64,000 nucleotides of DNA from Escherichia coli. Its GTDB lineage: Bacteria; Pseudomonadota; Gammaproteobacteria; Enterobacterales; Enterobacteriaceae. The position numbers and the translations under genes are program-made. The stretch is taken from the NCBI RefSeq assembly GCF_003790525.1, contig NZ_CP033635.1; one strand, 5' to 3'. Positions within the stretch are counted from its first letter, which is position 1. Every line of letters begins with the position of its first letter. The notes below the pieces were generated by a model. It saw nothing but the letters and a program-made list of their open reading frames with translations. It was not told the origin of the DNA and searched no databases. Positions 26,726 to 46,790 of the stretch are shown here, in pieces.

Positions 26726-26740
26726 GCAAAAGGCGTGCCA
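26726..26740 (-). promoter_or_regulatory. Sigma-54 (-24/-12) promoter upstream of lafB
   Basis: Minus strand reads TTGGCACgccttTTGCC, i.e. GG-N10-GC matching TGGCAC-N5-TTGC; predicted start ~20 nt upstream of the lafB ATG, with GGAG RBS in between. Confidence 0.5.
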
Positions 26741-26898: not shown

Positions 26899-27813
26899 TT
26901 ACTGCAGCAGGCTGGAAACCATGCTGGACATGCTGTTGGACTGTTTCAGCATGGTGATGCCGGTCTGCATCAGCACCTGCTGTTTAGTCATGTTGGACGC
27001 TTCCGTCGCGTAGTCGGTATCCATAATGTTACCGATAGCGACTTCGGTGTTGTCCTGCATACTGGTCAGGTTATTAGCGGTGTCGTTCAGACGGTTGATA
27101 GACGCCCCCAGCTTGGACTGGATCTGCGAAACATCATCCATCGCGGTAGAAATGCTGGTGATCATCTGGTTAGCCGAGCCAGACGCAGTCAGCTCAGTAC
27201 CGCCAGAAACGCCTGCGGTGCCAGTGGTGTCAGCCTGATCCGCACTGAAGGAGTTGCTGATAGCAGAAAGATCCGTCACCAGGGTATTCAGCTGGCTTGA
27301 AATATTCACGGTCATGGTGTCGGAAGATTCCGCGCCCACCTGGAAAGTTACTGCGCTCTGGAACAGACCGTCAGTACCGGTGTTGCTGGTACCGGAAACA
27401 CCGAACAGGTTGGTGCCGCCGTAAGTGGTGTTTTGCAGCATGTCAGACATCTGCTGACCCAGTTCATCGTATTCGTCCTGCATCGCCTGCAGATCGTCGT
27501 CGCTGTAGGTGCCGTTCGCTGCCTGAGTTGACAGGTCTTTCATACGACCCAGCACATCAGACATTTCGTCGAACATGCTGTCAGCGGTTTGCAGCATCGC
27601 GGTGGCATCATTGATGTTGCTCAGCGCCACACCCATACCGCTGGACTGTGCTGTCAGACGGTTAGCAATTTGTTTGCCTGCGGCGTCATCGGCAGAAGAG
27701 TTAATCCGGTTACCCGTTGCCAGGCGTTCCATAGATGTAGACAGAGAAGAGCTGCTTTTACTGATTGCATTAACGGCGGCCATTGAGGCGTTATTGGTGT
27801 TAATAGATAACAT
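26899..27813 (-). CDS. lafA: Lateral flagellin
   Basis: Translation from MLSINTNNASMAAVNAISKSS... has conserved flagellin N- and C-terminal domains (ends ...MSSMVSSLLQ); AGGAG RBS upstream of ATG 27813. Confidence 0.9.
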   Translation of the reverse strand: MLSINTNNASMAAVNAISKSSSSLSTSMERLATGNRINSSADDAAGKQIANRLTAQSSGMGVALSNINDATAMLQTADSMFDEMSDVLGRMKDLSTQAANGTYSDDDLQAMQDEYDELGQQMSDMLQNTTYGGTNLFGVSGTSNTGTDGLFQSAVTFQVGAESSDTMTVNISSQLNTLVTDLSAISNSFSADQADTTGTAGVSGGTELTASGSANQMITSISTAMDDVSQIQSKLGASINRLNDTANNLTSMQDNTEVAIGNIMDTDYATEASNMTKQQVLMQTGITMLKQSNSMSSMVSSLLQ

Positions 27814-27858
27814 GATACTGCTCCTTGGGATTAATCGTTTTCGTTTCGATACCCTGTA

Positions 27859-27885
27859 AAAACGACACCTCAGGAGCAAACTTAA
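27859..27885 (-). promoter_or_regulatory. Candidate sigma-28-type (LafS-dependent) promoter upstream of lafA
   Basis: Minus strand reads TTAAGTTT-N11-GTCGTTTT about 45 nt upstream of the lafA ATG; shares a motif with sites upstream of lfgK and lfgM. Confidence 0.3.
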
Positions 27886-39442: not shown

Positions 39443-39458
39443 AGCAATCGCTGTGCCA
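39443..39458 (-). promoter_or_regulatory. Sigma-54 (-24/-12) promoter of the lfgB operon
   Basis: Minus strand reads TTGGCACagcgaTTGCT, an exact fit to TGGCAC-N5-TTGC; predicted start ~26 nt upstream of the lfgB ATG. Confidence 0.55.
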
Positions 39459-39487
39459 ATTTTTAAGTGACTGATGAGAAAGGGTTT

Positions 39488-40225
39488 ATGAGTTTTCAAT
39501 TTTGCAGGCGGAAGTTTTATTTCCTCCTGGCGCTGGCCTTACCGGGCTACGCCGCCGTCCATCCCGTGCAACATAGCGCGCGGGAACAAATCAACGCCCA
39601 GGTACTGAATACCGCGAGCCAAAAAATTGAATCGCTGGCGCAGCAGCGGCAATGGCATGACTATCGCTACACCTTTAAGGTCTATATTCCGTCGCAGATT
39701 GCGACCGCCGCGCCCTGTACAACGTCACCCGGCGTCACGCTGACGTCGCCTGCGGAAATCGCCCTTAACCGGATGAACTTCACCGTCAGTTGCCCGCAAA
39801 GCTGGCAGATGAACGTCGCGGTGCGCCCGGATGTTCTGGTACCGGTGGTGATGGCAAAGTCACTGGTTGCCCGCGATACGCCGCTCACGGCAAATGATGT
39901 GGAGCTGAAGCCCTACAACGTCAGCGCCCAGCGTCGCGATGTGTTGATGGAGCTCGATGACGCAATTGGTTTAAGCAGTAAGCACGCGTTGCAACCGGGC
40001 AGACCAATCACCAAAGAAGAGCTGGTTTCGCCAGTGCTGGTCGAACGCGATCAGCCGGTGATGATTGTTTACCAGAGCGCGGGGATCACCGCCTCGATGC
40101 CCGGCGTGGCGCTGAAAAATGGTCGCAAAGGGGAAATGGTGAAAGTACGTAACGTCAGCAGCCAGCGGGTCATTAGCGCGAGGGTGGCGGAAAGCGGCGT
40201 GGTGACAACGGTAAGCGCGGAGTAA
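39488..40225 (+). CDS. lfgA: Flagellar P-ring assembly chaperone (FlgA homolog)
   Basis: Translation from MSFQFCRRKFYFLLALALPGYAAVHP... has a signal peptide and a FlgA-like C-terminal domain; divergent from lfgB. Confidence 0.8.
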   Translation: MSFQFCRRKFYFLLALALPGYAAVHPVQHSAREQINAQVLNTASQKIESLAQQRQWHDYRYTFKVYIPSQIATAAPCTTSPGVTLTSPAEIALNRMNFTVSCPQSWQMNVAVRPDVLVPVVMAKSLVARDTPLTANDVELKPYNVSAQRRDVLMELDDAIGLSSKHALQPGRPITKEELVSPVLVERDQPVMIVYQSAGITASMPGVALKNGRKGEMVKVRNVSSQRVISARVAESGVVTTVSAE

Positions 40226-40239
40226 TTTGCGCAGGCGAT

Positions 40240-40267
40240 TAAAGTTTTGCCGCCTGTTAACCGCTTT
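40240..40267 (+). promoter_or_regulatory. Candidate sigma-28-type promoter upstream of lfgM
   Basis: TAAAGTTT (exact sigma-28 -35 consensus) then N12 then ACCGCTTT, about 40 nt upstream of lfgM; the -10 half matches the lfgK candidate, not the classical GCCGATAA. Confidence 0.3.
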
Positions 40268-40304
40268 ACCGGAGTAACCCACCCAATACCGAGACGAGGT
40301 TACG

Positions 40305-40583
40305 ATGAAAATCACCCCGACGATGCCAGGCAATCGCCCGACAGCCACAATGGCAGGCTCCAGTCAGCCGCGCAAAAGCACGGCGACCACCGCCACGACG
40401 CTGAGCGCCGACGACATTACCCAGGCGGGATTGCAGTCTGCCCAGCAAACGCTGAACGACCAGCAAGAGAGCGATATCGACAGCGACAAAGTGGCGCAAA
40501 TGCAAGCGATGCTGGCGTCCGGCAGCCTGCAAGTGGACACCGAACAGTTAGCCAGCGACATGCTGAGTTTTTTCCAGAACTAA
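40305..40583 (+). CDS. lfgM: Anti-sigma-28 factor (FlgM homolog)
   Basis: 92-aa acidic, Gln/Ser-rich protein with a FlgM-like C-terminal helical region. Confidence 0.8.
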   Translation: MKITPTMPGNRPTATMAGSSQPRKSTATTATTLSADDITQAGLQSAQQTLNDQQESDIDSDKVAQMQAMLASGSLQVDTEQLASDMLSFFQN

Positions 40584-40595
40584 GAGGCCGATGAA

Positions 40596-41024
40596 GTGAG
40601 TATCCGGTTACAACAGGTGAAGGCGTTGTTGCAGGGCATTCGTGACGACGACGCACTGTACGATTCCCTGCGCGAACTTCTCCAGCGTCAGCGGATGTGC
40701 ATGATTCGCCGCGCCAGCGAAGATCTGCTGGCGGTAAACGACGAGATAACGCAGCACTATGAGCAGTTGCATGGGCATAGCCATCAGCGGCACAGCCTGC
40801 TGAAAATGCTTAATGTCAGTGTAAATCGTGACGGTCTGGCGCAGGTTTTTGCCTGGCTTCCGGCTGTGCAAAAAGCAGCAGCACAACAGTTGTGGCAACG
40901 CCTTGAGCAAAAAGCGGAACGCTGCAAAGCCTACAACGACAAAAACGGCGAGCTGTTGATTCGCCAGTATGAATTTATTCAGTCTTTTTTAGGCGGCGAA
41001 ACAGATTTTCTGTACCAGGAATAA
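40596..41024 (+). CDS. lfgN: Flagellar export chaperone (FlgN-like)
   Basis: 142-aa helical protein after lfgM, GTG start with AGAGG RBS. Confidence 0.7.
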   Translation: MSIRLQQVKALLQGIRDDDALYDSLRELLQRQRMCMIRRASEDLLAVNDEITQHYEQLHGHSHQRHSLLKMLNVSVNRDGLAQVFAWLPAVQKAAAQQLWQRLEQKAERCKAYNDKNGELLIRQYEFIQSFLGGETDFLYQE

Positions 41025-41151
41025 CGACAATTCCTTCCCCCATCGCGGAAACGGATTTTCCGCCTGATTCTCAATCCCTTGTTTTTGATTACAAAAATTC
41101 CCGGCACGCTTATTGCACATTCCGCAAAGTAATAAAGACTGGAAGCCACCT

Positions 41152-42081
41152 ATGAGTTTTATTGAACGTTACGAACCGGAATACGTGCGCAATTTTATGA
41201 CGCAATATCCCGATTCGCCTTTGTACGTCCGCAAGGTCTGGAAGAATGAGATTCGCCAGAGCCTGGCATTGACCGATATTGAAAGTTGCAAAGCGGTGCT
41301 CAACGATGCCAGGGCCTTTGATTTACAGCTCACCTACCGCCCTGTGGAAGACAATGCCGCCGAGCTATCCGCGCGCGATGCGATAGTAAACCAGGCCATT
41401 TTGAGCACCCTTACGCTCCCCGATTTAACCCCGGAGCTTTCCCTGTATGCCGTCGGGATTTTGCTCTCCCGCGCCAGTAAAATGCCGGGCAGAGACGGAG
41501 ATATTCTTGCCCGCTTGACGACGCTGCCACAGGCGCTGGGGGATCATGCACAAAAAGGCACGCTACAGGCACAGTTCGCCCAACTCCCACCCGTGCCACA
41601 ACTGGCGCGCCAACTGGTGACGCTGCTCGGGAGTTTTGCGTTTGACTGGTCGATTTTGCCGGAAAGCCCGCGCAAAGCCTCGCTACCGTTGCAGGTGACT
41701 TTGCTGACGTTGCATGACGCCAACAGCGAAGCTTTGTTGCAACAGCAGCTTAAGGTGCAGTGGCAAACCACCTGGCAACAGCATTTTGCCGCCGCGCCGT
41801 GGATGATGCGCAACTGGCTGATTTACCGCGTTTATCACGACGTGATTGGGCAGGCAGACGGAGCAGATTATTGCCCGCTGGTGTGTGATTTTTATCTCAT
41901 CCGCACGTTAATCAGTTTATGGACGCTGGATGGTTCACCGCTGCGGAAGGAGGATATTTTCGCCCTTTTTGCGGTGTTTGAACGCTGGCGAGAGAGTGAA
42001 AATGCTGCGGCGATTCGCCAGCAGCTCCAGTCGTTATGTGCGGCAGAGCCGCTGCTGTCAGCATTTTCGCTGCTGACGTGA
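41152..42081 (+). CDS. Hypothetical protein within the Flag-2 cluster
   Basis: Open frame from MSFIERYEPEYVRNFMTQYPDSPLYVRK... with core-like composition; no recognisable motif. Confidence 0.55.
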   Translation: MSFIERYEPEYVRNFMTQYPDSPLYVRKVWKNEIRQSLALTDIESCKAVLNDARAFDLQLTYRPVEDNAAELSARDAIVNQAILSTLTLPDLTPELSLYAVGILLSRASKMPGRDGDILARLTTLPQALGDHAQKGTLQAQFAQLPPVPQLARQLVTLLGSFAFDWSILPESPRKASLPLQVTLLTLHDANSEALLQQQLKVQWQTTWQQHFAAAPWMMRNWLIYRVYHDVIGQADGADYCPLVCDFYLIRTLISLWTLDGSPLRKEDIFALFAVFERWRESENAAAIRQQLQSLCAAEPLLSAFSLLT

Positions 42082-42101
42082 GTCGCTCTGTGCGCGCTTT
42101 T

Positions 42102-42210
42102 CCCCTCCCCCTAACCCTCTCCCCAAAGGGGCGAGGGAACCGATCGAGCACGGTGTTAAAATCGGCGCTGGTTTTCTCCCTCTCCCTGTGGGAGAGGGTC
42201 GGGGTGAGGG
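42102..42210. repeat. GC-rich palindromic intergenic repeat, two inverted copies (boxC-like; family name uncertain)
   Basis: CCCCTCCCCCTAACCCTCTCCCCAAAGGGGCGAGGG and its inverted partner CTCCCTCTCCCTGTGGGAGAGGGTCGGGGTGAGGG; same motif recurs at 53408 and 63851. Confidence 0.5.
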
Positions 42211-42256
42211 CATCAGCACGCATATTCATCACATTCACCCATTAACTCACCCAAAC

Positions 42257-44704
42257 ACCATGCCAACACCAACCATTATCAAAACACTCGCCACCCAGCG
42301 CGAAAAACCGTCCGTCAGCGTCATCACGCCAACCTGGAACCGCAGCGCATTCCTGCCGTACCTGCTTTATATGTACCGCTATCAGGACTACCCGGCAGAC
42401 CGCCGCGAACTCATCATCCTCGACGATTCCCCTCAAAGCCATCAACACATCATCGACCGCCTGACCAATGGCACACCGGAAGCCTTCAACATCCGCTACA
42501 TCCATCACCCGGAAAAACTGCCGCTGGGCAAAAAACGCAATATGCTCAACGAACTGGCGCGCGGCGAATACATCCTCTGCATGGACGATGACGACTACTA
42601 CCCGGCAGATAAAATCTCTTACACCATCGCTATGATGCAAAAAAACCGGGCGCTCATCTCCGGTTCCGACCAGATCCCCATCTGGTACAGCCACATCAAT
42701 CGCATCTTTCAAAGCCGCAGCTTCGGCCCGCATAACATCCTCAACGGCACCTTTTGCTATCACCGTAACTACCTGAAAAAGCACCGCTACGATGACGATT
42801 GCAATTTAGGCGAAGAGAAAAGTTTCACCGACAATTTCAGCGTTAACCCGCTACAACTGCCCGGCGAGCGCACGATTTTGTGTATCTCGCACAGCCACAA
42901 CACCTTTGATAAAGACTTTATTCTCGGGGCCAGCACGCCAGTAAACGCGACGCTTACGGATATCGTCCGCGATCCGCTGCTCCGCAATGCTTATCTGAGT
43001 CTGCATAACGCCACTCATCATCAGGCGATCCAGTATCAGGCGATCGATCAGATCGTTCTGCTGAATCTGGATAAACGCCCGGATCGCTTACAGCAGATCC
43101 GTGAAGAACTCACATTGCTGCATATTCCTCCTGAGAAGATCACCCGCCTTGCCGCCAGTGAAAATGAAAACGGTCAACGGGGCCGCCAGCAATCACACTT
43201 GCAGGCACTGCGTCTGGCGCAACAACGCGGCTGGCAAAACTACCTGCTGCTGGAAGATGACGCGGTTATTCTCAAACAGGAGAAACATATTCAGGTGCTG
43301 AACGCGCTGCTGGCGAGCCTGGCGAAAATTCCCTGGCAGGTGATGATCCTCGGCGGCGAAATTTCGCAGGGAACGATGCTAAAAAGTTTGCCTGGGCTGG
43401 TGCACGCGCGGGACTGCCGCAAAGTGTGCGCTTATCTGGTGAACCGCCGCTACTACCCGCAGCTGGCGCAGCAGATGAACAACGATGAGCATTCGCTGGA
43501 AGACGGCTGGCAGCCGCTGCTGCGCACCGACAAATGGCTGGCCTGTTACCCGAGCCTTTGTTATCAGCGACCGGGCTTTAGTGATATCGAGAAAAAAGCG
43601 ACTGATAACATTAACCACTACTTCAATAAGTTACCCGTAGCCACCAAGCCATCTACATTACCTATCGCCGATACCATCGGCTTTTTTATGGAAACCTCAT
43701 TCCACTACGCGCTCTACCGCCCAATCATCACCGCCCTGCAGGCGCAGGGGCAGAGCTGTACGCTGGTGATCAATGACCGCGTATTTAAACCATTTCTGGA
43801 TGAAATGCTGGCGACGCTAAAAAGCATCGACGATCCGCAGCTCAAAGGAATGCGCTTATCTGAAATGCAGGCACACGGTCAGCGAGTAAAATGCCTGGTC
43901 AGCCCCTATCACACGCCTGTGCTCAGTGGCCTTTCCCCCCTGAACATTCGCGCCATGTACGGCTTAGCCAAAGAAACGTGGAACCACGCCGACTGGAACC
44001 GTTTTTATCAGCGCATTTTGTGTTACAGCCACTACAGCCAGCGGGCGCTGGCACATTTCGGCAGCGCAATAGTGGTCGGCAACCCGCGCTTCGACGCCTG
44101 GCATAACGCCACGTTCGACCGCGCGTTGCCGGAAAATATCAAACTGGACGAGCGTAAACCCACCGTACTCTACGCCCCAACGTTTGGCGCATTAAGCTCC
44201 CTGCCCCACTGGGCAGAAAAATTGGGGCGCTTAAGCGATGATGTGAACCTGATTTGCAAACTGCACCACGGCACCTGCTCGCGCCCGGAAGAAGCTGCAT
44301 CGCTGGCCCTGGCTCGCAGGCATTTAAAACAGCGCACCGACTCCGCCCGTCACACGCTGGCGCTGCTGGCAAAGGCCGATTACGTGCTGACCGATAACAG
44401 CGGCTTTATTTTCGATGCTATTCACGTTGATAAGCGGGTGATCCTGCTCGACTTTCCGGGCATGGCAACGTTGCTCGACGGTGAGAAAAGTTACTCCACG
44501 CCCGAAAGCGCCGACCAGCGAATCCGCGAAATATTGCCGGTGGCTCATGATGTTGCGGAACTGCGTTATTTGTTGTCAGAGGCGTTTGACTGGGGTGCGG
44601 TGCAGGCGCGGCTTACGAAGATTCGTCATCACTATTGCGATGCGTTTATGGATGGCAAGGCGGGAGAACGGGCAGCGATGGTGATTGTGGAGGCACTAGG
44701 GTAA
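42257..44704 (+). CDS. Multidomain glycosyltransferase: N-terminal GT-A family 2 domain, second GT-like domain, C-terminal TagF/TagB-type CDP-glycerol glycerophosphotransferase-like domain
   Basis: VSVITPTWNR...ILDDSP...CMDDDDYY (GT2 fold with DxD), ILLEDDAVIL in the middle, and C-terminal KPTVLYAPTFGALSS resembling the TagF-family LYAPTxR motif. Start at ATG 42257; the track start lies in the upstream repeat. Confidence 0.7.
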   Translation, partial: TMPTPTIIKTLATQREKPSVSVITPTWNRSAFLPYLLYMYRYQDYPADRRELIILDDSPQSHQHIIDRLTNGTPEAFNIRYIHHPEKLPLGKKRNMLNELARGEYILCMDDDDYYPADKISYTIAMMQKNRALISGSDQIPIWYSHINRIFQSRSFGPHNILNGTFCYHRNYLKKHRYDDDCNLGEEKSFTDNFSVNPLQLPGERTILCISHSHNTFDKDFILGASTPVNATLTDIVRDPLLRNAYLSLHNATHHQAIQYQAIDQIVLLNLDKRPDRLQQIREELTLLHIPPEKITRLAASENENGQRGRQQSHLQALRLAQQRGWQNYLLLEDDAVILKQEKHIQVLNALLASLAKIPWQVMILGGEISQGTMLKSLPGLVHARDCRKVCAYLVNRRYYPQLAQQMNNDEHSLEDGWQPLLRTDKWLACYPSLCYQRPGFSDIEKKATDNINHYFNKLPVATKPSTLPIADTIGFFMETSFHYALYRPIITALQAQGQSCTLVINDRVFKPFLDEMLATLKSIDDPQLKGMRLSEMQAHGQRVKCLVSPYHTPVLSGLSPLNIRAMYGLAKETWNHADWNRFYQRILCYSHYSQRALAHFGSAIVVGNPRFDAWHNATFDRALPENIKLDERKPTVLYAPTFGALSSLPHWAEKLGRLSDDVNLICKLHHGTCSRPEEAASLALARRHLKQRTDSARHTLALLAKADYVLTDNSGFIFDAIHVDKRVILLDFPGMATLLDGEKSYSTPESADQRIREILPVAHDVAELRYLLSEAFDWGAVQARLTKIRHHYCDAFMDGKAGERAAMVIVEALG

Positions 44705-44715
44705 AACGCGCAAGT

Positions 44716-44813
44716 GCCTGATGCGCTTCGCTTATCAGGCCTACGCGACCTTGCAATGTATTGAATTTGTAAGGATTTGTAGGCCGGTTAAGGCGTTTAC
44801 GCCGCATCCGGAA
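44716..44813. repeat. BIME (two REP palindromes in opposite orientation)
   Basis: GCCTGATGCGCTTCGCTTATCAGGCCTAC ... GTAGGCCGGTTAAGGCGTTTACGCCGCATCCGGAA. Confidence 0.6.
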
Positions 44814-45029
44814 CGAACAACGCACTTAACTACCCTCTGATTTCAAACTCATCGCTTTATGACTGGTGAATCGGTAAAAGTCGTAGATTGTGGGGGAGCG
44901 ATCTTTATGAATTCTGAAAAAACCTGAATCTTGCTAAACATATTGCTTATCATAAATATAGGTTACACACTATAACAATTATTGCGTAATTTAACATTTT
45001 GTTAAAATTGATAGGGCATAAACGATAAC

Positions 45030-45851
45030 ATGACTTATGATAAAAAAGTAACTTCCGGTACAACAAGCCAGAAACAAAACAACATTGTCACTCAAAAAAT
45101 ATCTCGCCCAAAGGAATTGTTTCTATTATTTTGGGTTGATGAGTCCGGTGATAGCCGACGTTCTATTTTTGAAGAAGCATGTCTGACGCGTTATTTCAAC
45201 ATCCTTTACTCCCCCGAGTATAAAAAAGAAACACAGATAGTTTACCATTTATCAATTAACACATTTAATCAAATCAAAGAAATATTAGAAATCTTTATAA
45301 ACAAGAATGGAGGTATAACCAAAGCAAAAGTTAAAGAAGTCAGTTTATTCTCACATGGGGGGCCAATTCATGGTCCTACAACCTCAGACTCTGTAAATAC
45401 ACCTTCCGTGCCTAAATACCCACAACAAATGGACATAATCGGAGGATGGGATTCAATTGATTTTAACTGGTCAAATAACGCTATGTTTGTTATGTATGGT
45501 TGTCGCACTAGTTATGCAAGTGATGATTCAGGACAAGGTTTTGCCAGTAAATTATCCCTATTAGATAATTTTAAGGACGTTAATGTCTGGGGACAAACAG
45601 AAAGTACTTATCCATCTTATTTCCCAGATATTAGGACAACTTCGATTATGAGGTCAATAAATATAGGTTGGTCTTTTTCACCAACATACATGGTTGCCAG
45701 TTCTGAAGGTCAAGGATGGGATGCCTTATTTCCGGATGATAAAAATCCACTAAAGTCTCTCCCTATGCAGTGTTATAATAATGGGAAATTGATTTTAACC
45801 TGCGATCAAAGCAGTTTTAATGATCACCGGAAGAATAAATCAAATGATTAG
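45030..45851 (+). CDS. Hypothetical protein, AT-rich insert inside Flag-2
   Basis: 273-aa ORF, markedly more AT-rich than neighbours; candidate His (SLFSHGGPIHG) and Cys (VMYGCRTSY) motifs noted but not assignable. Confidence 0.5.
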   Translation: MTYDKKVTSGTTSQKQNNIVTQKISRPKELFLLFWVDESGDSRRSIFEEACLTRYFNILYSPEYKKETQIVYHLSINTFNQIKEILEIFINKNGGITKAKVKEVSLFSHGGPIHGPTTSDSVNTPSVPKYPQQMDIIGGWDSIDFNWSNNAMFVMYGCRTSYASDDSGQGFASKLSLLDNFKDVNVWGQTESTYPSYFPDIRTTSIMRSINIGWSFSPTYMVASSEGQGWDALFPDDKNPLKSLPMQCYNNGKLILTCDQSSFNDHRKNKSND

Positions 45852-46383
45852 TATTATATTGAGAAGCTTGATTCTATTATTCATGATAATAGTGTATCCA
45901 GATTATAATAAAAACCTACCTGCCTTTGAAGTATATGGGGAAAATGACATACTTAAGGATATGGTTATTAATATGAAAACTTATAGTAACCATAGTAAGA
46001 AAAACTCTTCCCCAACAACTATAGTGCAAACCATCCTTTTTAAAGGGAATATACAGCAAGTTTTTGAAAGCAACGATATGGGTGCAGAGAGCTTCTTTTT
46101 TTCTTATAATAACAAGGTTGAAACGCTGGTAACAGACGCTTTCTTTTTGAATAGAAAATTAGACAAACTGCATGATGCAAATATTTTTGAAGTTATAAAG
46201 CATGGGGAAAATATCGTTATTAGATATTACAAATGCAAAATTGAATATATGAAAAAAGAAAAATCTATCGAAATAGAGATATCAACAAACAAAAACAGTT
46301 ATTTTAGCAAAAATGGAATAAAACAAAAAGACACAAATAAATATAACACATATTTCTTCAATTACTTTGAGGCTCAAAAATAA
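45820..46383 (+). CDS. Hypothetical protein with N-terminal hydrophobic segment, AT-rich insert inside Flag-2
   Basis: 187-aa ORF overlapping the end of the previous gene; N-terminus MISIILRSLILLFMIIVYP looks like a signal or membrane anchor. Start uncertain. Confidence 0.45.
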   Translation: MITGRINQMISIILRSLILLFMIIVYPDYNKNLPAFEVYGENDILKDMVINMKTYSNHSKKNSSPTTIVQTILFKGNIQQVFESNDMGAESFFFSYNNKVETLVTDAFFLNRKLDKLHDANIFEVIKHGENIVIRYYKCKIEYMKKEKSIEIEISTNKNSYFSKNGIKQKDTNKYNTYFFNYFEAQK

Positions 46384-46394
46384 ATTTTATTTTG

Positions 46395-46790
46395 TCATGC
46401 TTTCCCCCTAATCACCTCAATAATCCCCGTCGTCGACACCGACGGCGTGCGGGGGAAATACACTACCTCACAAATATACGCGAAGCTGTCAAACTTTCCT
46501 GCCCAGTCATCGCCCATCACTAAAATATCCGCACTGTACCCCCGCAGATACTCCGCTTTCTGCTCCAGCGACTCTTCCAGAAATACGCCATCCACGCACG
46601 CCAGCCCGGCGATGATCGCCATGCGGTCATCCTGAGGGTAAACCGGTGCCCTGCCCTTTTTGGCGATGTTCAGGGCATCGGACGATACGCCGACCAGCAG
46701 CCGTTCGCCCAGCGTGCGGGCGCGTTGTAAAAGGCGCAGATGACCGACATGAAACACATCGAAGGTGCCGAAGGTGATGACCGTTTTCAT
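46395..46790 (-). CDS. Cytidylyltransferase (glycerol-3-phosphate cytidylyltransferase TagD-like)
   Basis: 131 aa; MKTVITFGTFDVFHVGHLRLLQRAR carries the HxGH nucleotidyltransferase motif; start is 3 nt after the lfiJ stop. Confidence 0.8.
   Translation of the reverse strand: MKTVITFGTFDVFHVGHLRLLQRARTLGERLLVGVSSDALNIAKKGRAPVYPQDDRMAIIAGLACVDGVFLEESLEQKAEYLRGYSADILVMGDDWAGKFDSFAYICEVVYFPRTPSVSTTGIIEVIRGKA

Follow-up and report, generated by a model that had tools for sequence, protein, structure and literature searches.

LafV of the Flag-2 lateral flagellar locus of Escherichia coli: a FliB-family protein without the iron-sulphur segment, encoded next to a glycosyltransferase

In Flag-2 loci, variable region 1 is the segment between lfgN and lfiJ. 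In the Escherichia coli DNA analysed here (a window of 64 kb, meaning the whole stretch), it holds, after lfgN and ahead of a large glycosyltransferase (GT) gene, an open reading frame whose product is identical to RefSeq WP_000008091.1 from E. coli SMS-3-5 (CDS ECSMS35_RS01290), there called 'hypothetical protein'. An earlier note, made from the sequence letters, had described a frame of ~310 aa with core-like composition, placed after a flgN homologue and before a glycosyltransferase. The frame coincides exactly with the 309-aa RefSeq CDS, both neighbours are borne out by Pfam matches and by RefSeq, and the GC content (0.50–0.58) is that of the neighbouring genes. The six-frame list gives a longer frame covering the gene (41113..42081, plus strand, 322 aa, TTG start), but the ATG at 41152 is the RefSeq start; it has GGAAG 6 nt ahead of it and is common to orthologues down to 40% identity, all opening with M..IE.YEPEFV. 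The gaps to lfgN upstream and to the true start of the GT gene downstream are 127 and 178 nt, respectively. The gene had been put down as one of unknown function, but it already has a name, LafV, and many database records annotate its homologues as 'lysine-N-methylase'. It is reportedly Ren et al. in 2005 who first named lafV. The positions of all features are collected in Table 1.

Table 1. Features of the lafV locus and of the flagellin gene in the window
Feature	Position	Strand	Remarks
lafA, lateral flagellin, presumed substrate of the module	26899..27813	-	304 aa; Flagellin_N and Flagellin_C domains
lfgN, FlgN-type export chaperone gene	40596..41024	+	PF05130, E 4.5e-19; RefSeq name flgN
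Stem-loop GCGGAAA-CGGAT-TTTCCGC	41045..41063	+	just past the lfgN stop, without T-run; read from the sequence
Sigma-54-type -24/-12 element CGGCACGCTTATTGCA	41102..41117	+	its end is 35 nt away from the lafV start codon, on the upstream side
lafV CDS	41152..42081	+	309 aa plus stop; six-frame ORF list and RefSeq CDS
lafV as FliB_C-only FliB-family member, Cys-less short form	41152..42081	+	PF27117 of homologues, partial NF038110
Junction where long FliB has ~85 extra residues	41212..41217	+	codons D21/S22; alignment A2
NWLIYRVYHD, best-conserved FliB/LafV family motif	41812..41841	+	codons 221–230 of lafV
lafV–GT spacer	42082..42259		built from a GC-rich palindromic repeat (~55 nt, dispersed) present twice
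Three-domain glycosyltransferase	42260..44704	+	814 aa; PF00535 and PF04464
TagD-like glycerol-3-phosphate cytidylyltransferase	46395..46790	-	TIGR01518 and PF01467

The name LafV is used for these proteins as by De Maayer et al. (2020, PMC6993521; 'previously termed LafV'). Their types LafV1–LafV10 occupy the same place, variable region 1 between lfgN and lfiJ, measure 299–318 aa in nine of ten cases (LafV9 has 228 aa) and show equally weak similarity to FliB with no conserved-domain match. With its 309 aa (~300–318 aa being the size of LafV proteins), its place between lfiJ and lfgN and its similarity to FliB, the product has all the marks of LafV, and going by position, size and FliB similarity the frame at 41152–42081 is lafV, most likely of type LafV6, which 219 Enterobacteriaceae strains carry (PMC6993521).

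The partner transferase has three domains. Two are of the GT-A type, the first belonging to GT2 and the next resembling GT25/COLGALT1 in fold, and the last is a TagB/TagF-like CDP-glycerol glycerophosphotransferase; in Foldseek the first two domains match COLGALT1 (E 2e-13). A TagD-like gene, which matches TIGR01518 with an E value of 4.4e-33 but under the cut-off of that model (PF01467, E 1.2e-19), is present beside lafV and GT in most loci, and its enzyme would be the source of CDP-glycerol as donor in the lafV–GT module.

Exact GGCAC-N5-TTGC sites occur three times in the window, all intergenic, and they point into the Flag-2 genes or operons lafB, lfgB and lafV. The element upstream of lafV is kept in divergent genera, while the remaining spacer has diverged. 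lafV appears to be transcribed from its own predicted sigma-54-type promoter and is probably cotranscribed with the downstream three-domain transferase. A scan of 40200–42400 for sigma-70 promoters gave zero sites, and a terminator scan gave no terminator-like match within the lfgN–lafV spacer, the stem-loop there not being reported by it. Matches to positions 20–56 and 88–147 of the lafV–GT spacer number 6 per E. coli genome (median); outside Escherichia and Pseudocitrobacter this spacer is only 17–99 bp long. The location of lafV directly after lfgM-lfgN, with a promoter of the same class as those into lafB and lfgB (hook-basal-body genes), is what one would expect if LafV were an export chaperone or regulatory factor of lateral flagellar assembly, similar to LfgN or LfgM and unrelated to modification, and the all-helical model described below would fit this as well. 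However, LafV is homologous to an enzyme and not to the FlgN or FliS families, and across loci it is the linkage to GT that is kept and not that to lfgN (L025, L038 and L036, below), making this role very improbable.

The reference model for the family is NF038110, the NCBIfam equivalog for the FliB flagellin lysine-N-methylase, with a curated cut-off of 85 bits. LafV reaches 39.3 bits (E 5.7e-10), below that cut-off, and its residues 30–284 match only positions 106–367 of the 373 in the profile; other short forms score 44–79 bits, and control long FliBs 263–286 bits over positions 1–372. The earlier note had seen no motif in the frame. This stands for our local Pfam scan, which gave zero families with a Pfam copy that predates PF27117, but not for the partial NCBIfam match, nor for the homologues, as the newer PF27117 (FliB_C) is precomputed for close homologues (92% identity) and for all orthologues at 40–55% identity. 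In the other direction, searching with a LafV-clade profile brings up long FliBs (E 1e-30 to 1e-10). LafV has the FliB_C domain and belongs to the family of the flagellin-modifying enzyme FliB. The flagellar accessory or modification role, which the earlier note had proposed from position alone, is supported by this membership, and by the description of variable region 1 of Flag-2 as a flagellin glycosylation and methylation region (PMC6993521).

What separates LafV from FliB becomes visible in an alignment of short and long forms (A2). Residues 1–21 of both proteins align; FliB then carries ~85 additional aa, with the four cysteines of the CX4CX3CC [4Fe-4S] motif and a further three conserved ones, where LafV runs straight on. 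LafV keeps the first ~20 residues of FliB and the whole C-terminal helical FliB_C domain; since its N-terminus aligns with that of FliB, the loss is an internal deletion and not a truncation. The CX4CX3CC motif is found in all 47 long-form clusters and is absent from 12 short clusters including the LafV lineage. The short forms are of two types: in one, CxCxxC and a further cysteine make up four invariant positions, and the other is Cys-less; LafV belongs to the latter, its clade having no invariant cysteine in 18 sequences. PF03692 (CxxCxxCC, YkgJ-like putative zinc/iron-chelating) gives a sub-threshold match in long FliBs at residues 17–125 and none in LafV. A separate gene for the missing Cys domain was looked for by a six-frame scan of the window (CX4CX3CC, CX2CX2CC and looser patterns), with matches in non-coding frames only. 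An upstream remnant of the lost segment was also considered and rejected: the lfgN–lafV spacer has just 127 nt, which hold the promoter and the hairpin.

The part that LafV retains includes the best-conserved motif of the family. NWLIYRVYHD is located on a single helix (H217–230) in the AlphaFold2 model; in A2, N221 is invariant and Y225 nearly so across long and short forms, and within the LafV clade Y225, R226, Y228 and H229 are invariant. The motif (221–230) is a candidate functional site independent of the Fe-S segment. It may be a docking surface, but it could instead be a catalytic site binding SAM or lysine.

The searchable literature yielded no experiment on LafV, and the only biochemical study of the FliB family is that of Salmonella enterica FliB (PMC8598068). 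There, methyl transfer requires the [4Fe-4S] cluster, with C17, C22, C26 and C27 as its ligands, and a quadruple Cys-to-Ala mutant loses activity. In principle, LafV may still be a lateral-flagellin lysine-N-methylase, with FliB_C being catalytic without the cluster or borrowing a redox or metal partner from elsewhere. Homology with FliB is clear over ~260 residues, NY..YR.YHD is retained as the most conserved motif of the family, the gene is under purifying selection, many database records and PMC6993521 use the name, and the inactivity of the quadruple mutant may in part have a structural cause. On the other hand, all four Fe-S ligands are missing from LafV, its 39 bits are to be compared with an equivalog cut-off of 85, and the locus encodes no CxxCxxCC partner. 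The predicted fold is neither Rossmann class I, SET nor radical SAM, that is, it resembles no solved methyltransferase class, and a PDB search with it found no relative. Furthermore, the variable region of the flagellin LafA has zero lysines, and the obligate pairing with GT is left unexplained by methylation. We regard a methylase as unlikely, and the inherited label 'lysine-N-methylase' as doubtful.

Another way to read the loss of the catalytic metal segment is that lafV is a decaying remnant of fliB without present function. In this respect, lafV diverges somewhat faster than its neighbours, with 83–94% amino-acid identity where LfiI and LfiJ have 94–99% in the same comparisons. Against this, dN/dS is 0.10–0.20 relative to eight orthologues (those at 83–94%), similar to the 0.11–0.16 of the partner GT, and lafV is under purifying selection. 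Length and start are kept across genera at 40–55% identity, and the promoter is conserved. A full-length lafV is found in 1277/5426 complete E. coli genomes, and among the 1278 which carry the gene all but one have it intact. Structure prediction, proposed as a check in the earlier note, gave a confident all-helical AlphaFold2 model (pLDDT 91.6, pTM 0.90). A relic is barely credible given these data, and the pseudogene idea was set aside on the strength of dN/dS and intactness. The same dN/dS values and the confident model, together with 91 clusters homologous to LafV, agree with the description of the gene as conserved-looking and set it well apart from a chance ORF, and conservation in other Flag-2 loci, on which the earlier note had made its reading depend, was found in Escherichia, Pseudocitrobacter, Citrobacter, Phytobacter, Enterobacter and Leminorella.

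In all 25 distinct contexts of Cys-less lafV that were sampled, with protein identity down to 40%, a homologous GT gene is next downstream on the same strand, with a gap of 17–261 bp. All short FliB_C proteins with adequate context have a GT alongside, which is the homologous tandem GT in nearly all cases and is usually joined by glycerol-3-phosphate cytidylyltransferase and glycerophosphotransferase functions. In one locus (L025) the lfgN context is lost, and TagD-lafV-GT is retained between two flagellin genes. The Cys-containing short forms have a homologous two-domain GT directly upstream in 4/5 contexts examined, and in two of them (L038 and L039) the stop and start codons of GT and lafV overlap. 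TagD-like or TagF-like genes follow lafV in three of these four; in the remaining context (L037), the GT2 gene is a different one and is located, like a TagF-like and a TagD-like gene, 1.7–5 kb downstream. In L038, lafV is next to flagellin and motAB, and in L036 it comes after lfiJ-GT. The TagD-lafV-GT association is thus found across varied loci, showing that the module survives both gene-order shuffling and gene fusion. By comparison, the two long FliBs examined are located between fliC and fliA without a nearby GT. The published counts show a similar picture, with LafV6 in 219 strains and GT2-1 in 222, and LafV in 342 and GTs in 341 of 592 loci (PMC6993521). It is worth noting that Cys-containing short forms, with their four invariant cysteines, may still be enzymes, and therefore the association with GT does not by itself imply a loss of catalysis. 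Moreover, the region collects flagellin-modification genes, so the co-location of lafV and GT could mean parallel, independent modifications.

In one metagenomic protein, a Cys-less FliB_C domain (hhalign probability 99.2%) is joined to a PM0188-type sialyltransferase domain, although this is a single sequence from a low-coverage contig of 2.2 kb; a search with P0212 for further FliB_C-glycosyltransferase fusions gave no second example, P0212 finding itself alone. For the pair in the window, an AlphaFold2 prediction of LafV-(G4S)6-GT(1–468) with a paired 15-row alignment, made as a one-sided test of docking, reached pTM 0.62 and mean pLDDT 78.7, values that fit docking and its absence alike. 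The fusion, the strict co-occurrence with GT and the placing of some lafV genes inside GT/TagD/TagF operons whose stop and start codons overlap could also mean that LafV acts on the glycan and not on the protein, by tailoring, priming or chain-length control in the glycerol-phosphate glycan pathway of the GT, TagD-like and TagF-like enzymes. This is improbable: the sole characterised relative of LafV acts on flagellin itself (PMC8598068), long and short forms were found in flagellar loci only (contexts examined), and comparison of the LafV fold with sugar-modifying folds revealed no similarity.

The presumed substrate, LafA, is lysine-poor. It has 6 lysines in all, which are located in D0/D1-type regions, and none in the central variable region of 78 residues, of which 33% are Ser/Thr. 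For flagellins encoded beside full-length fliB, the variable regions contain 13 lysines in 223 residues and 4 in 49. In a filament without large outer domains, some of the D0/D1-type lysines of LafA may be exposed.

Taken together, we tentatively favour the view, at slightly less than even confidence, that LafV serves the glycosylation of lateral flagellin, as an accessory or targeting factor, and is not a FliB-type methylase. The reasons are that the Fe-S segment is missing and that the gene constantly travels with a flagellin glycosylation gene set. lafV, the three-domain transferase (GT2, GT25-like, TagF-like) and the TagD-like cytidylyltransferase form one conserved module. In the mechanism proposed, LafV would be a non-redox accessory subunit that recognises LafA in the cytoplasm before export. 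It may bind the flagellin and cooperate with the transferase by presenting the Ser/Thr-rich variable region of LafA to it, presumably having no methylase activity of its own; alternatively, it might enable the modification of LafA with a glycerol-phosphate-bearing glycan in some other way. In FliB, FliB_C would then be what recognises the flagellin, and LafV would have taken it over minus the catalytic metal site. A more general version, less likely than not, is that the short FliB_C proteins are 'ex-methylases': in lateral flagellar systems, the flagellin-recognising FliB_C would have lost the catalytic Fe-S segment and become the subunit that directs a flagellin glycosyl/glycerophosphotransferase to its substrate, with a fusion to a sialyltransferase in one case.

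Compared with Salmonella FliB, LafV is homologous over residues 30–284, shares the N-terminal ~20 residues and the NY..YR.YHD helix, is likewise encoded in a flagellar locus and, like FliB, is presumed to be cytoplasmic. The differences are that LafV is ~90 residues shorter, without the CX4CX3CC ligands and the three conserved cysteines that follow; that it is found between lfgN and GT in Flag-2, and FliB in fliC-fliB-fliA of the primary flagellar locus; and that the cognate flagellin of LafV has no variable-region lysines. De Maayer et al. treat all LafV types as FliB orthologues and infer methylation from this (PMC6993521), whereas in our analysis the short forms split into Cys-containing and Cys-less types, both tied to GT modules. 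The logic proposed for LafV is similar to that of Caulobacter FlmG, which has a TPR and a GT domain (PMC7591256), and of Maf, where flagellin recognition is combined with a cytoplasmic Ser/Thr transferase before export; the FliB_C-sialyltransferase fusion has an FlmG-like layout. In sequence and fold, LafV is unrelated to TPR or Maf, and its putative recognition part would be a separate, methylase-derived polypeptide. A further analogy is human LH3/COLGALT1, since COLGALT1, a tandem GT-A protein with a GT25-type catalytic domain, is the closest structure to the first two domains of the partner GT, and both systems pair such a GT with a protein of a lysine-modifying family. Here, however, the similarity belongs to the neighbouring GT and not to LafV, which is unrelated to lysyl hydroxylases, and the match itself has low TM-scores (0.3–0.4), with other tandem GT-A enzymes matching too. 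By analogy with collagen, LafV and the COLGALT1-like transferase might jointly build a lysine-directed glycan, but this is much less likely.

Roughly one in four complete E. coli genomes carries the gene, as do many Citrobacter and related genomes, and the label 'lysine-N-methylase' on many of these records is a pure transfer from Salmonella FliB. lafV is a single accessory gene of a secondary flagellar system, and its practical importance is moderate. Should LafV prove to assist glycosylation, a common annotation would be in error, and FliB_C would acquire a role in flagellin recognition that can be put to the test and that would account for the substrate choice of FliB as well. The flagellin of Flag-2 would then be predicted to carry a glycerol-phosphate glycan rather than methyl-lysine, and such a glycan would be relevant to the antigenicity of lateral flagella, and to their surface chemistry, in Enterobacteriaceae of the gut.

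The open frame that follows the flgN homologue in the Flag-2 (lateral flagellar) locus already has a name, lafV. The earlier note had described a frame of ~310 aa with core-like composition, lying before a glycosyltransferase (GT), and was right in every particular: the six-frame ORF (41113..42081, +) has an ATG at 41152, and its GC content resembles that of its neighbours (0.50-0.58). Over the region compared, the window matches E. coli SMS-3-5 (NC_010498.1) without a difference; there the gene is RefSeq CDS ECSMS35_RS01290 / WP_000008091.1, labelled 'hypothetical protein'. De Maayer et al. (PMC6993521) place variable region 1 (VR1) of Flag-2 between lfiJ and lfgN, list ten LafV types (nine of 299-318 aa, and LafV9 of 228 aa) and find them in 342 of 592 Flag-2 loci. 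The function assumed for LafV is a matter of homology alone, and no experimental work on it was found in the literature searched.

Features of the window around lafV and related sites
Feature	Coordinates	Strand	Remarks
sigma-54 -24/-12 site	26726-26739	-	into lafB (fliD-like)
lafA	26899..27813	-	lateral flagellin, 304 aa
lfgA	39467..40225	+	FlgA homologue
sigma-54 -24/-12 site	39444-39457	-	into lfgB
lfgM	40305..40583	+	FlgM homologue
lfgN	40596..41024	+	FlgN homologue
sigma-54 -24/-12 site	41103-41116	+	into lafV
lafV	41152..42081	+	309 aa
lafV-GT spacer	42082-42259		two copies of a GC-rich palindromic dispersed repeat, about 55 nt
GT	42260..44704	+	814 aa, multi-domain; true start, ATG 42260
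low-GC insert	about 44750-46390		GC 0.30-0.36; between GT and TagD-like gene
insert ORF 1	45030..45851		273 aa; weak sub-threshold DUF4347 match
insert ORF 2	45820..46383		187 aa; no family match
TagD-like cytidylyltransferase	46395..46790	-	beyond low-GC two-ORF insert
lfiJ, lfiI, lfiH		-	beyond GT and low-GC insert

A search of 5.8 billion protein clusters found 91 homologous clusters (products of 308-315 aa), mainly from Escherichia, Pseudocitrobacter, Citrobacter and Phytobacter. Among 5426 complete E. coli genomes, 1278 carry lafV DNA, and in all but one of these (1277) it is essentially full length. Eight orthologues with 83-94% protein identity give dN/dS values of 0.10-0.20 (Nei-Gojobori); the adjacent GT gives 0.11-0.16 and lfgN 0.05-0.16. 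The lafV values contradict the minor alternative that lafV is a decaying relic. Structure prediction, which the earlier note had proposed, gave an AlphaFold2 model (18-row alignment; pLDDT 91.6, pTM 0.90) with a small beta/alpha unit (residues 1-64) and then an all-helical domain (residues 74-308). Within E. coli the alleles diverge more than is usual for one species: those of most genomes have 80-90% DNA identity to that of SMS-3-5, against 98-99% identity in the proteins of lfiI and lfiJ close by, which suggests allelic replacement or a diversifying history within VR1.

A local Pfam scan gave no family match for the lafV product. The NCBIfam profile NF038110 'flagellin lysine-N-methylase FliB' matches it partially (E 5.7e-10, 39.3 bits; LafV residues 30-284 against profile positions 106-367 of 373). 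The curated cut-off is 85 bits; true long FliBs reach 263-286 bits, and every short form stays below it at 39-79 bits. LafV homologues carry the newer Pfam family PF27117, named FliB_C, and many are called 'lysine-N-methylase' or 'lateral flagellar associated protein' at source. LafV is a variant of a known family. Wang et al. (PMC8598068) have shown that Salmonella FliB, which has eight highly conserved cysteines, contains a [4Fe-4S] cluster, sensitive to oxygen and required for methyl transfer, with ligands C17, C22, C26 and C27 in a CX4CX3CC motif. Searching 1.84 billion representative proteins with a LafV alignment profile returned 135 clusters, whose full-length members fall into three classes: long FliBs of about 400 aa with CX4CX3CC (47 clusters), short forms of about 300-325 aa with an N-terminal CxCxxC (23 clusters), and short forms of 285-327 aa with no cysteine motif, which take in the lafV lineage (12 clusters).

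When short and long forms are aligned jointly, LafV residues 1-21 (..YEPEYVRNF..) pair with FliB residues 1-21, after which FliB has about 85 extra residues containing the Fe-S motif and three more cysteines; LafV picks up at SPLYVRKVWKNEIRQSL, matching FliB YPR....K.E..SL.LSCPEA. On this alignment LafV reads as FliB with its metal-binding segment excised. An N-terminal truncation of FliB is ruled out by the pairing of residues 1-21. The alignment of the LafV clade has no invariant cysteine, and the 64-kb window has no ORF that could supply a CxxCxxCC domain in trans. The best-conserved element of the whole family, the helix motif N221-x3-Y225-R226-x-Y228-H229-D230, is kept in LafV. The Cys-containing short forms (23 clusters, e.g. 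P0102, P0110 and P0130; loci L035-L039) have exactly four invariant cysteines, the CxCxxC near residue 22 and the equivalent of FliB C125 near residue 51, which may form a minimal metal site; 'LafV' in the literature therefore lumps two biochemically different types. The methylase annotation that LafV has inherited is doubtful, and it is likely that this is a mis-annotation, one that is experimentally tractable.

The earlier note's suggestion of a flagellar accessory or modification-related role is supported by finding this FliB relative inside VR1 and tied to glycosylation genes. A context scan with one genome per species returned 25 loci, of which 22 have Cys-less lafV, with protein identity down to 40%; the gene is conserved in Flag-2 loci of several genera. 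Two of the 22 duplicate exact-protein look-ups; with the three contexts that the look-ups gave (C. rodentium, Citrobacter sp. 18056 and a metagenome assembly) the distinct contexts number 25, and another three E. coli genomes come on top of these. Every Cys-less context examined has a homologous GT of 814-887 aa on the same strand 17-261 bp after lafV (split into two ORFs by the gene caller in C. rodentium), and most have a TagD-like gene (glycerol-3-phosphate cytidylyltransferase) nearby. An Enterobacteriaceae isolate (L025) has no lfgN context and retains TagD-lafV-GT between two 302-aa flagellin genes. For the Cys-containing short forms, four of five contexts (L035, L036, L038 and L039) have, directly upstream of lafV, a GT whose homology to the window's GT covers residues 4-500 of the latter; the stop codon of this upstream GT overlaps the lafV start codon in L038 and L039. 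After lafV come TagD-like and TagF-like (CDP-glycerol glycerophosphotransferase) genes in L036, a TagD-like gene in L039, and a second GT2 and then a flagellin gene in L038; the fifth, L037, has a different GT2 and sulfatase-family, TagF-like and TagD-like genes 1.7-5 kb downstream. The set of tandem GT, LafV, TagD and TagF thus survives reordering, relocation and gene fusion, a pattern typical of a functional unit. Strain counts in the literature agree with this linkage (LafV6 219 and GT2-1, 828 aa, 222; LafV1 112 and GT2-3, 474 aa, 99; TagD 235), and De Maayer et al. (PMC6993521) already proposed that the glycan of Flag-2 flagellin contains a polyol phosphate resembling teichoic acid. Two long FliB genes examined for context, unlike lafV, have fliC and fliA on either side and no GT close by.

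A long FliB has a setting other than fliC-fliA in Limnobaculum allomyrinae (Budviciaceae; L030, 8390-9415 and 9692-10909, both +): the gene for this 405-aa protein immediately follows that of a radical-SAM / 4Fe-4S protein, and a GroEL-like gene comes next. E. coli O166:H15 JNE070796 (L034, 2265-4982) has a DNA cytosine methyltransferase and a type II restriction endonuclease between lfgA and lfgM, in agreement with the EcoRII/Dcm cargo of PMC6993521. VR1 of three other E. coli genomes consists of lafV, GT and the cytidylyltransferase only, and the low-GC insert missing from them is probably a recent horizontal insertion. An E. coli genome has the repeat of the lafV-GT spacer at 6 places (median), and the repeat resembles a BoxC-type element; a mechanical ORF (42188..44704, GTG, 838 aa) begins inside it. 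Outside Escherichia and Pseudocitrobacter this spacer is only 17-99 bp.

The closest fold to the first two domains of GT (GT2 and a second GT-A) is human COLGALT1 (Foldseek E 2e-13), a collagen hydroxylysine galactosyltransferase with tandem GT-A domains, followed by heparosan synthase 2, chondroitin polymerase K4CP, RmlT and TarS. These matches mainly identify a tandem GT-A architecture; the parallel of GT and LafV with a lysine-directed glycosylation pair is weak. The third domain is TagB/TagF-like, and other lineages divide the same functions between a ~480-aa GT and a separate Glyphos_transf protein. A metagenomic protein of 603 aa (P0212; L042, contig ERZ4740423 NODE_1321, gene 391-2202) joins a Cys-less FliB_C domain (hhalign probability 99.2%) through a PKD-like linker to a PM0188-type sialyltransferase domain. 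The fusion is seen in this one sequence, on a low-coverage contig, with no second example in 5.8 billion clusters, and serves as a lead only. A glycan-tailoring role for LafV is a minor alternative.

The lfgN-lafV spacer contains a near-consensus sigma-54 -24/-12 element, CGGCACGCTTATTGCA (41102-41117). Exact GGCAC-N5-TTGC sites number only three in the window, all intergenic and pointing into Flag-2 genes; 11 of 100 shuffles also reach three, so it is their placement, not their number, that is telling. The lafV element is kept in Escherichia, Pseudocitrobacter, several Citrobacter lineages, Phytobacter, isolate RIT691 and Leminorella while the remaining spacer has diverged, and in the cross-genus comparison it is absent where lafV abuts lfgN. 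LafK is a sigma-54 activator of early and middle genes in lateral flagellar systems, and lafV-GT expression would then be predicted to precede flagellin synthesis. The three sites taken together outline a putative LafK/sigma-54 regulon in the locus. An export or regulatory role for LafV, beside lfgM and lfgN, is likewise a minor alternative.

The presumed substrate, LafA, has six lysines, all of them in the conserved helical regions at the N and C termini; the central stretch of 78 residues has 0 Lys, 0 Arg and 33% Ser/Thr. (The mechanical lafA ORF, 26899-27879 (-), opens with a TTG that precedes the likely true start, MLSINTNN..., by 22 codons.) In flagellins encoded beside full-length fliB, lysine takes 13 of 223 and 4 of 49 central positions, and FliB methylates exposed D2/D3 lysines, not D0/D1 (PMC8598068), so LafA looks more like an O-glycosylation substrate than a FliB-type one. 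The main rival reading, that LafV is still a methylase with its catalytic site in FliB_C, fits the retained helix motif, and some LafA D1 lysines could be exposed where the filament has no outer domains; given the lost cluster ligands and the lysine-free centre, we consider it unlikely. The retained FliB_C domain and helix, the loss of the Fe-S ligands, purifying selection, obligate linkage to GT, TagD and TagF, the promoter and the flagellin centre are most economically read together as pointing to an accessory protein, without redox function, of the machinery that glycosylates lateral flagellin, a tentative assignment to which we give slightly less than an even chance. LafV would probably recognise flagellin on behalf of the transferase, in the way that the TPR domain does in Caulobacter FlmG (PMC7591256). 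In a one-sided docking test, an AlphaFold2 model of a LafV-linker-GT(1-468) fusion with paired alignment gave pTM 0.62, a value that speaks neither for nor against docking. The literature found has apparently not pointed out that there is a LafV type without the metal site that defines FliB catalysis, nor that short FliB_C proteins are components of glycosylation modules.
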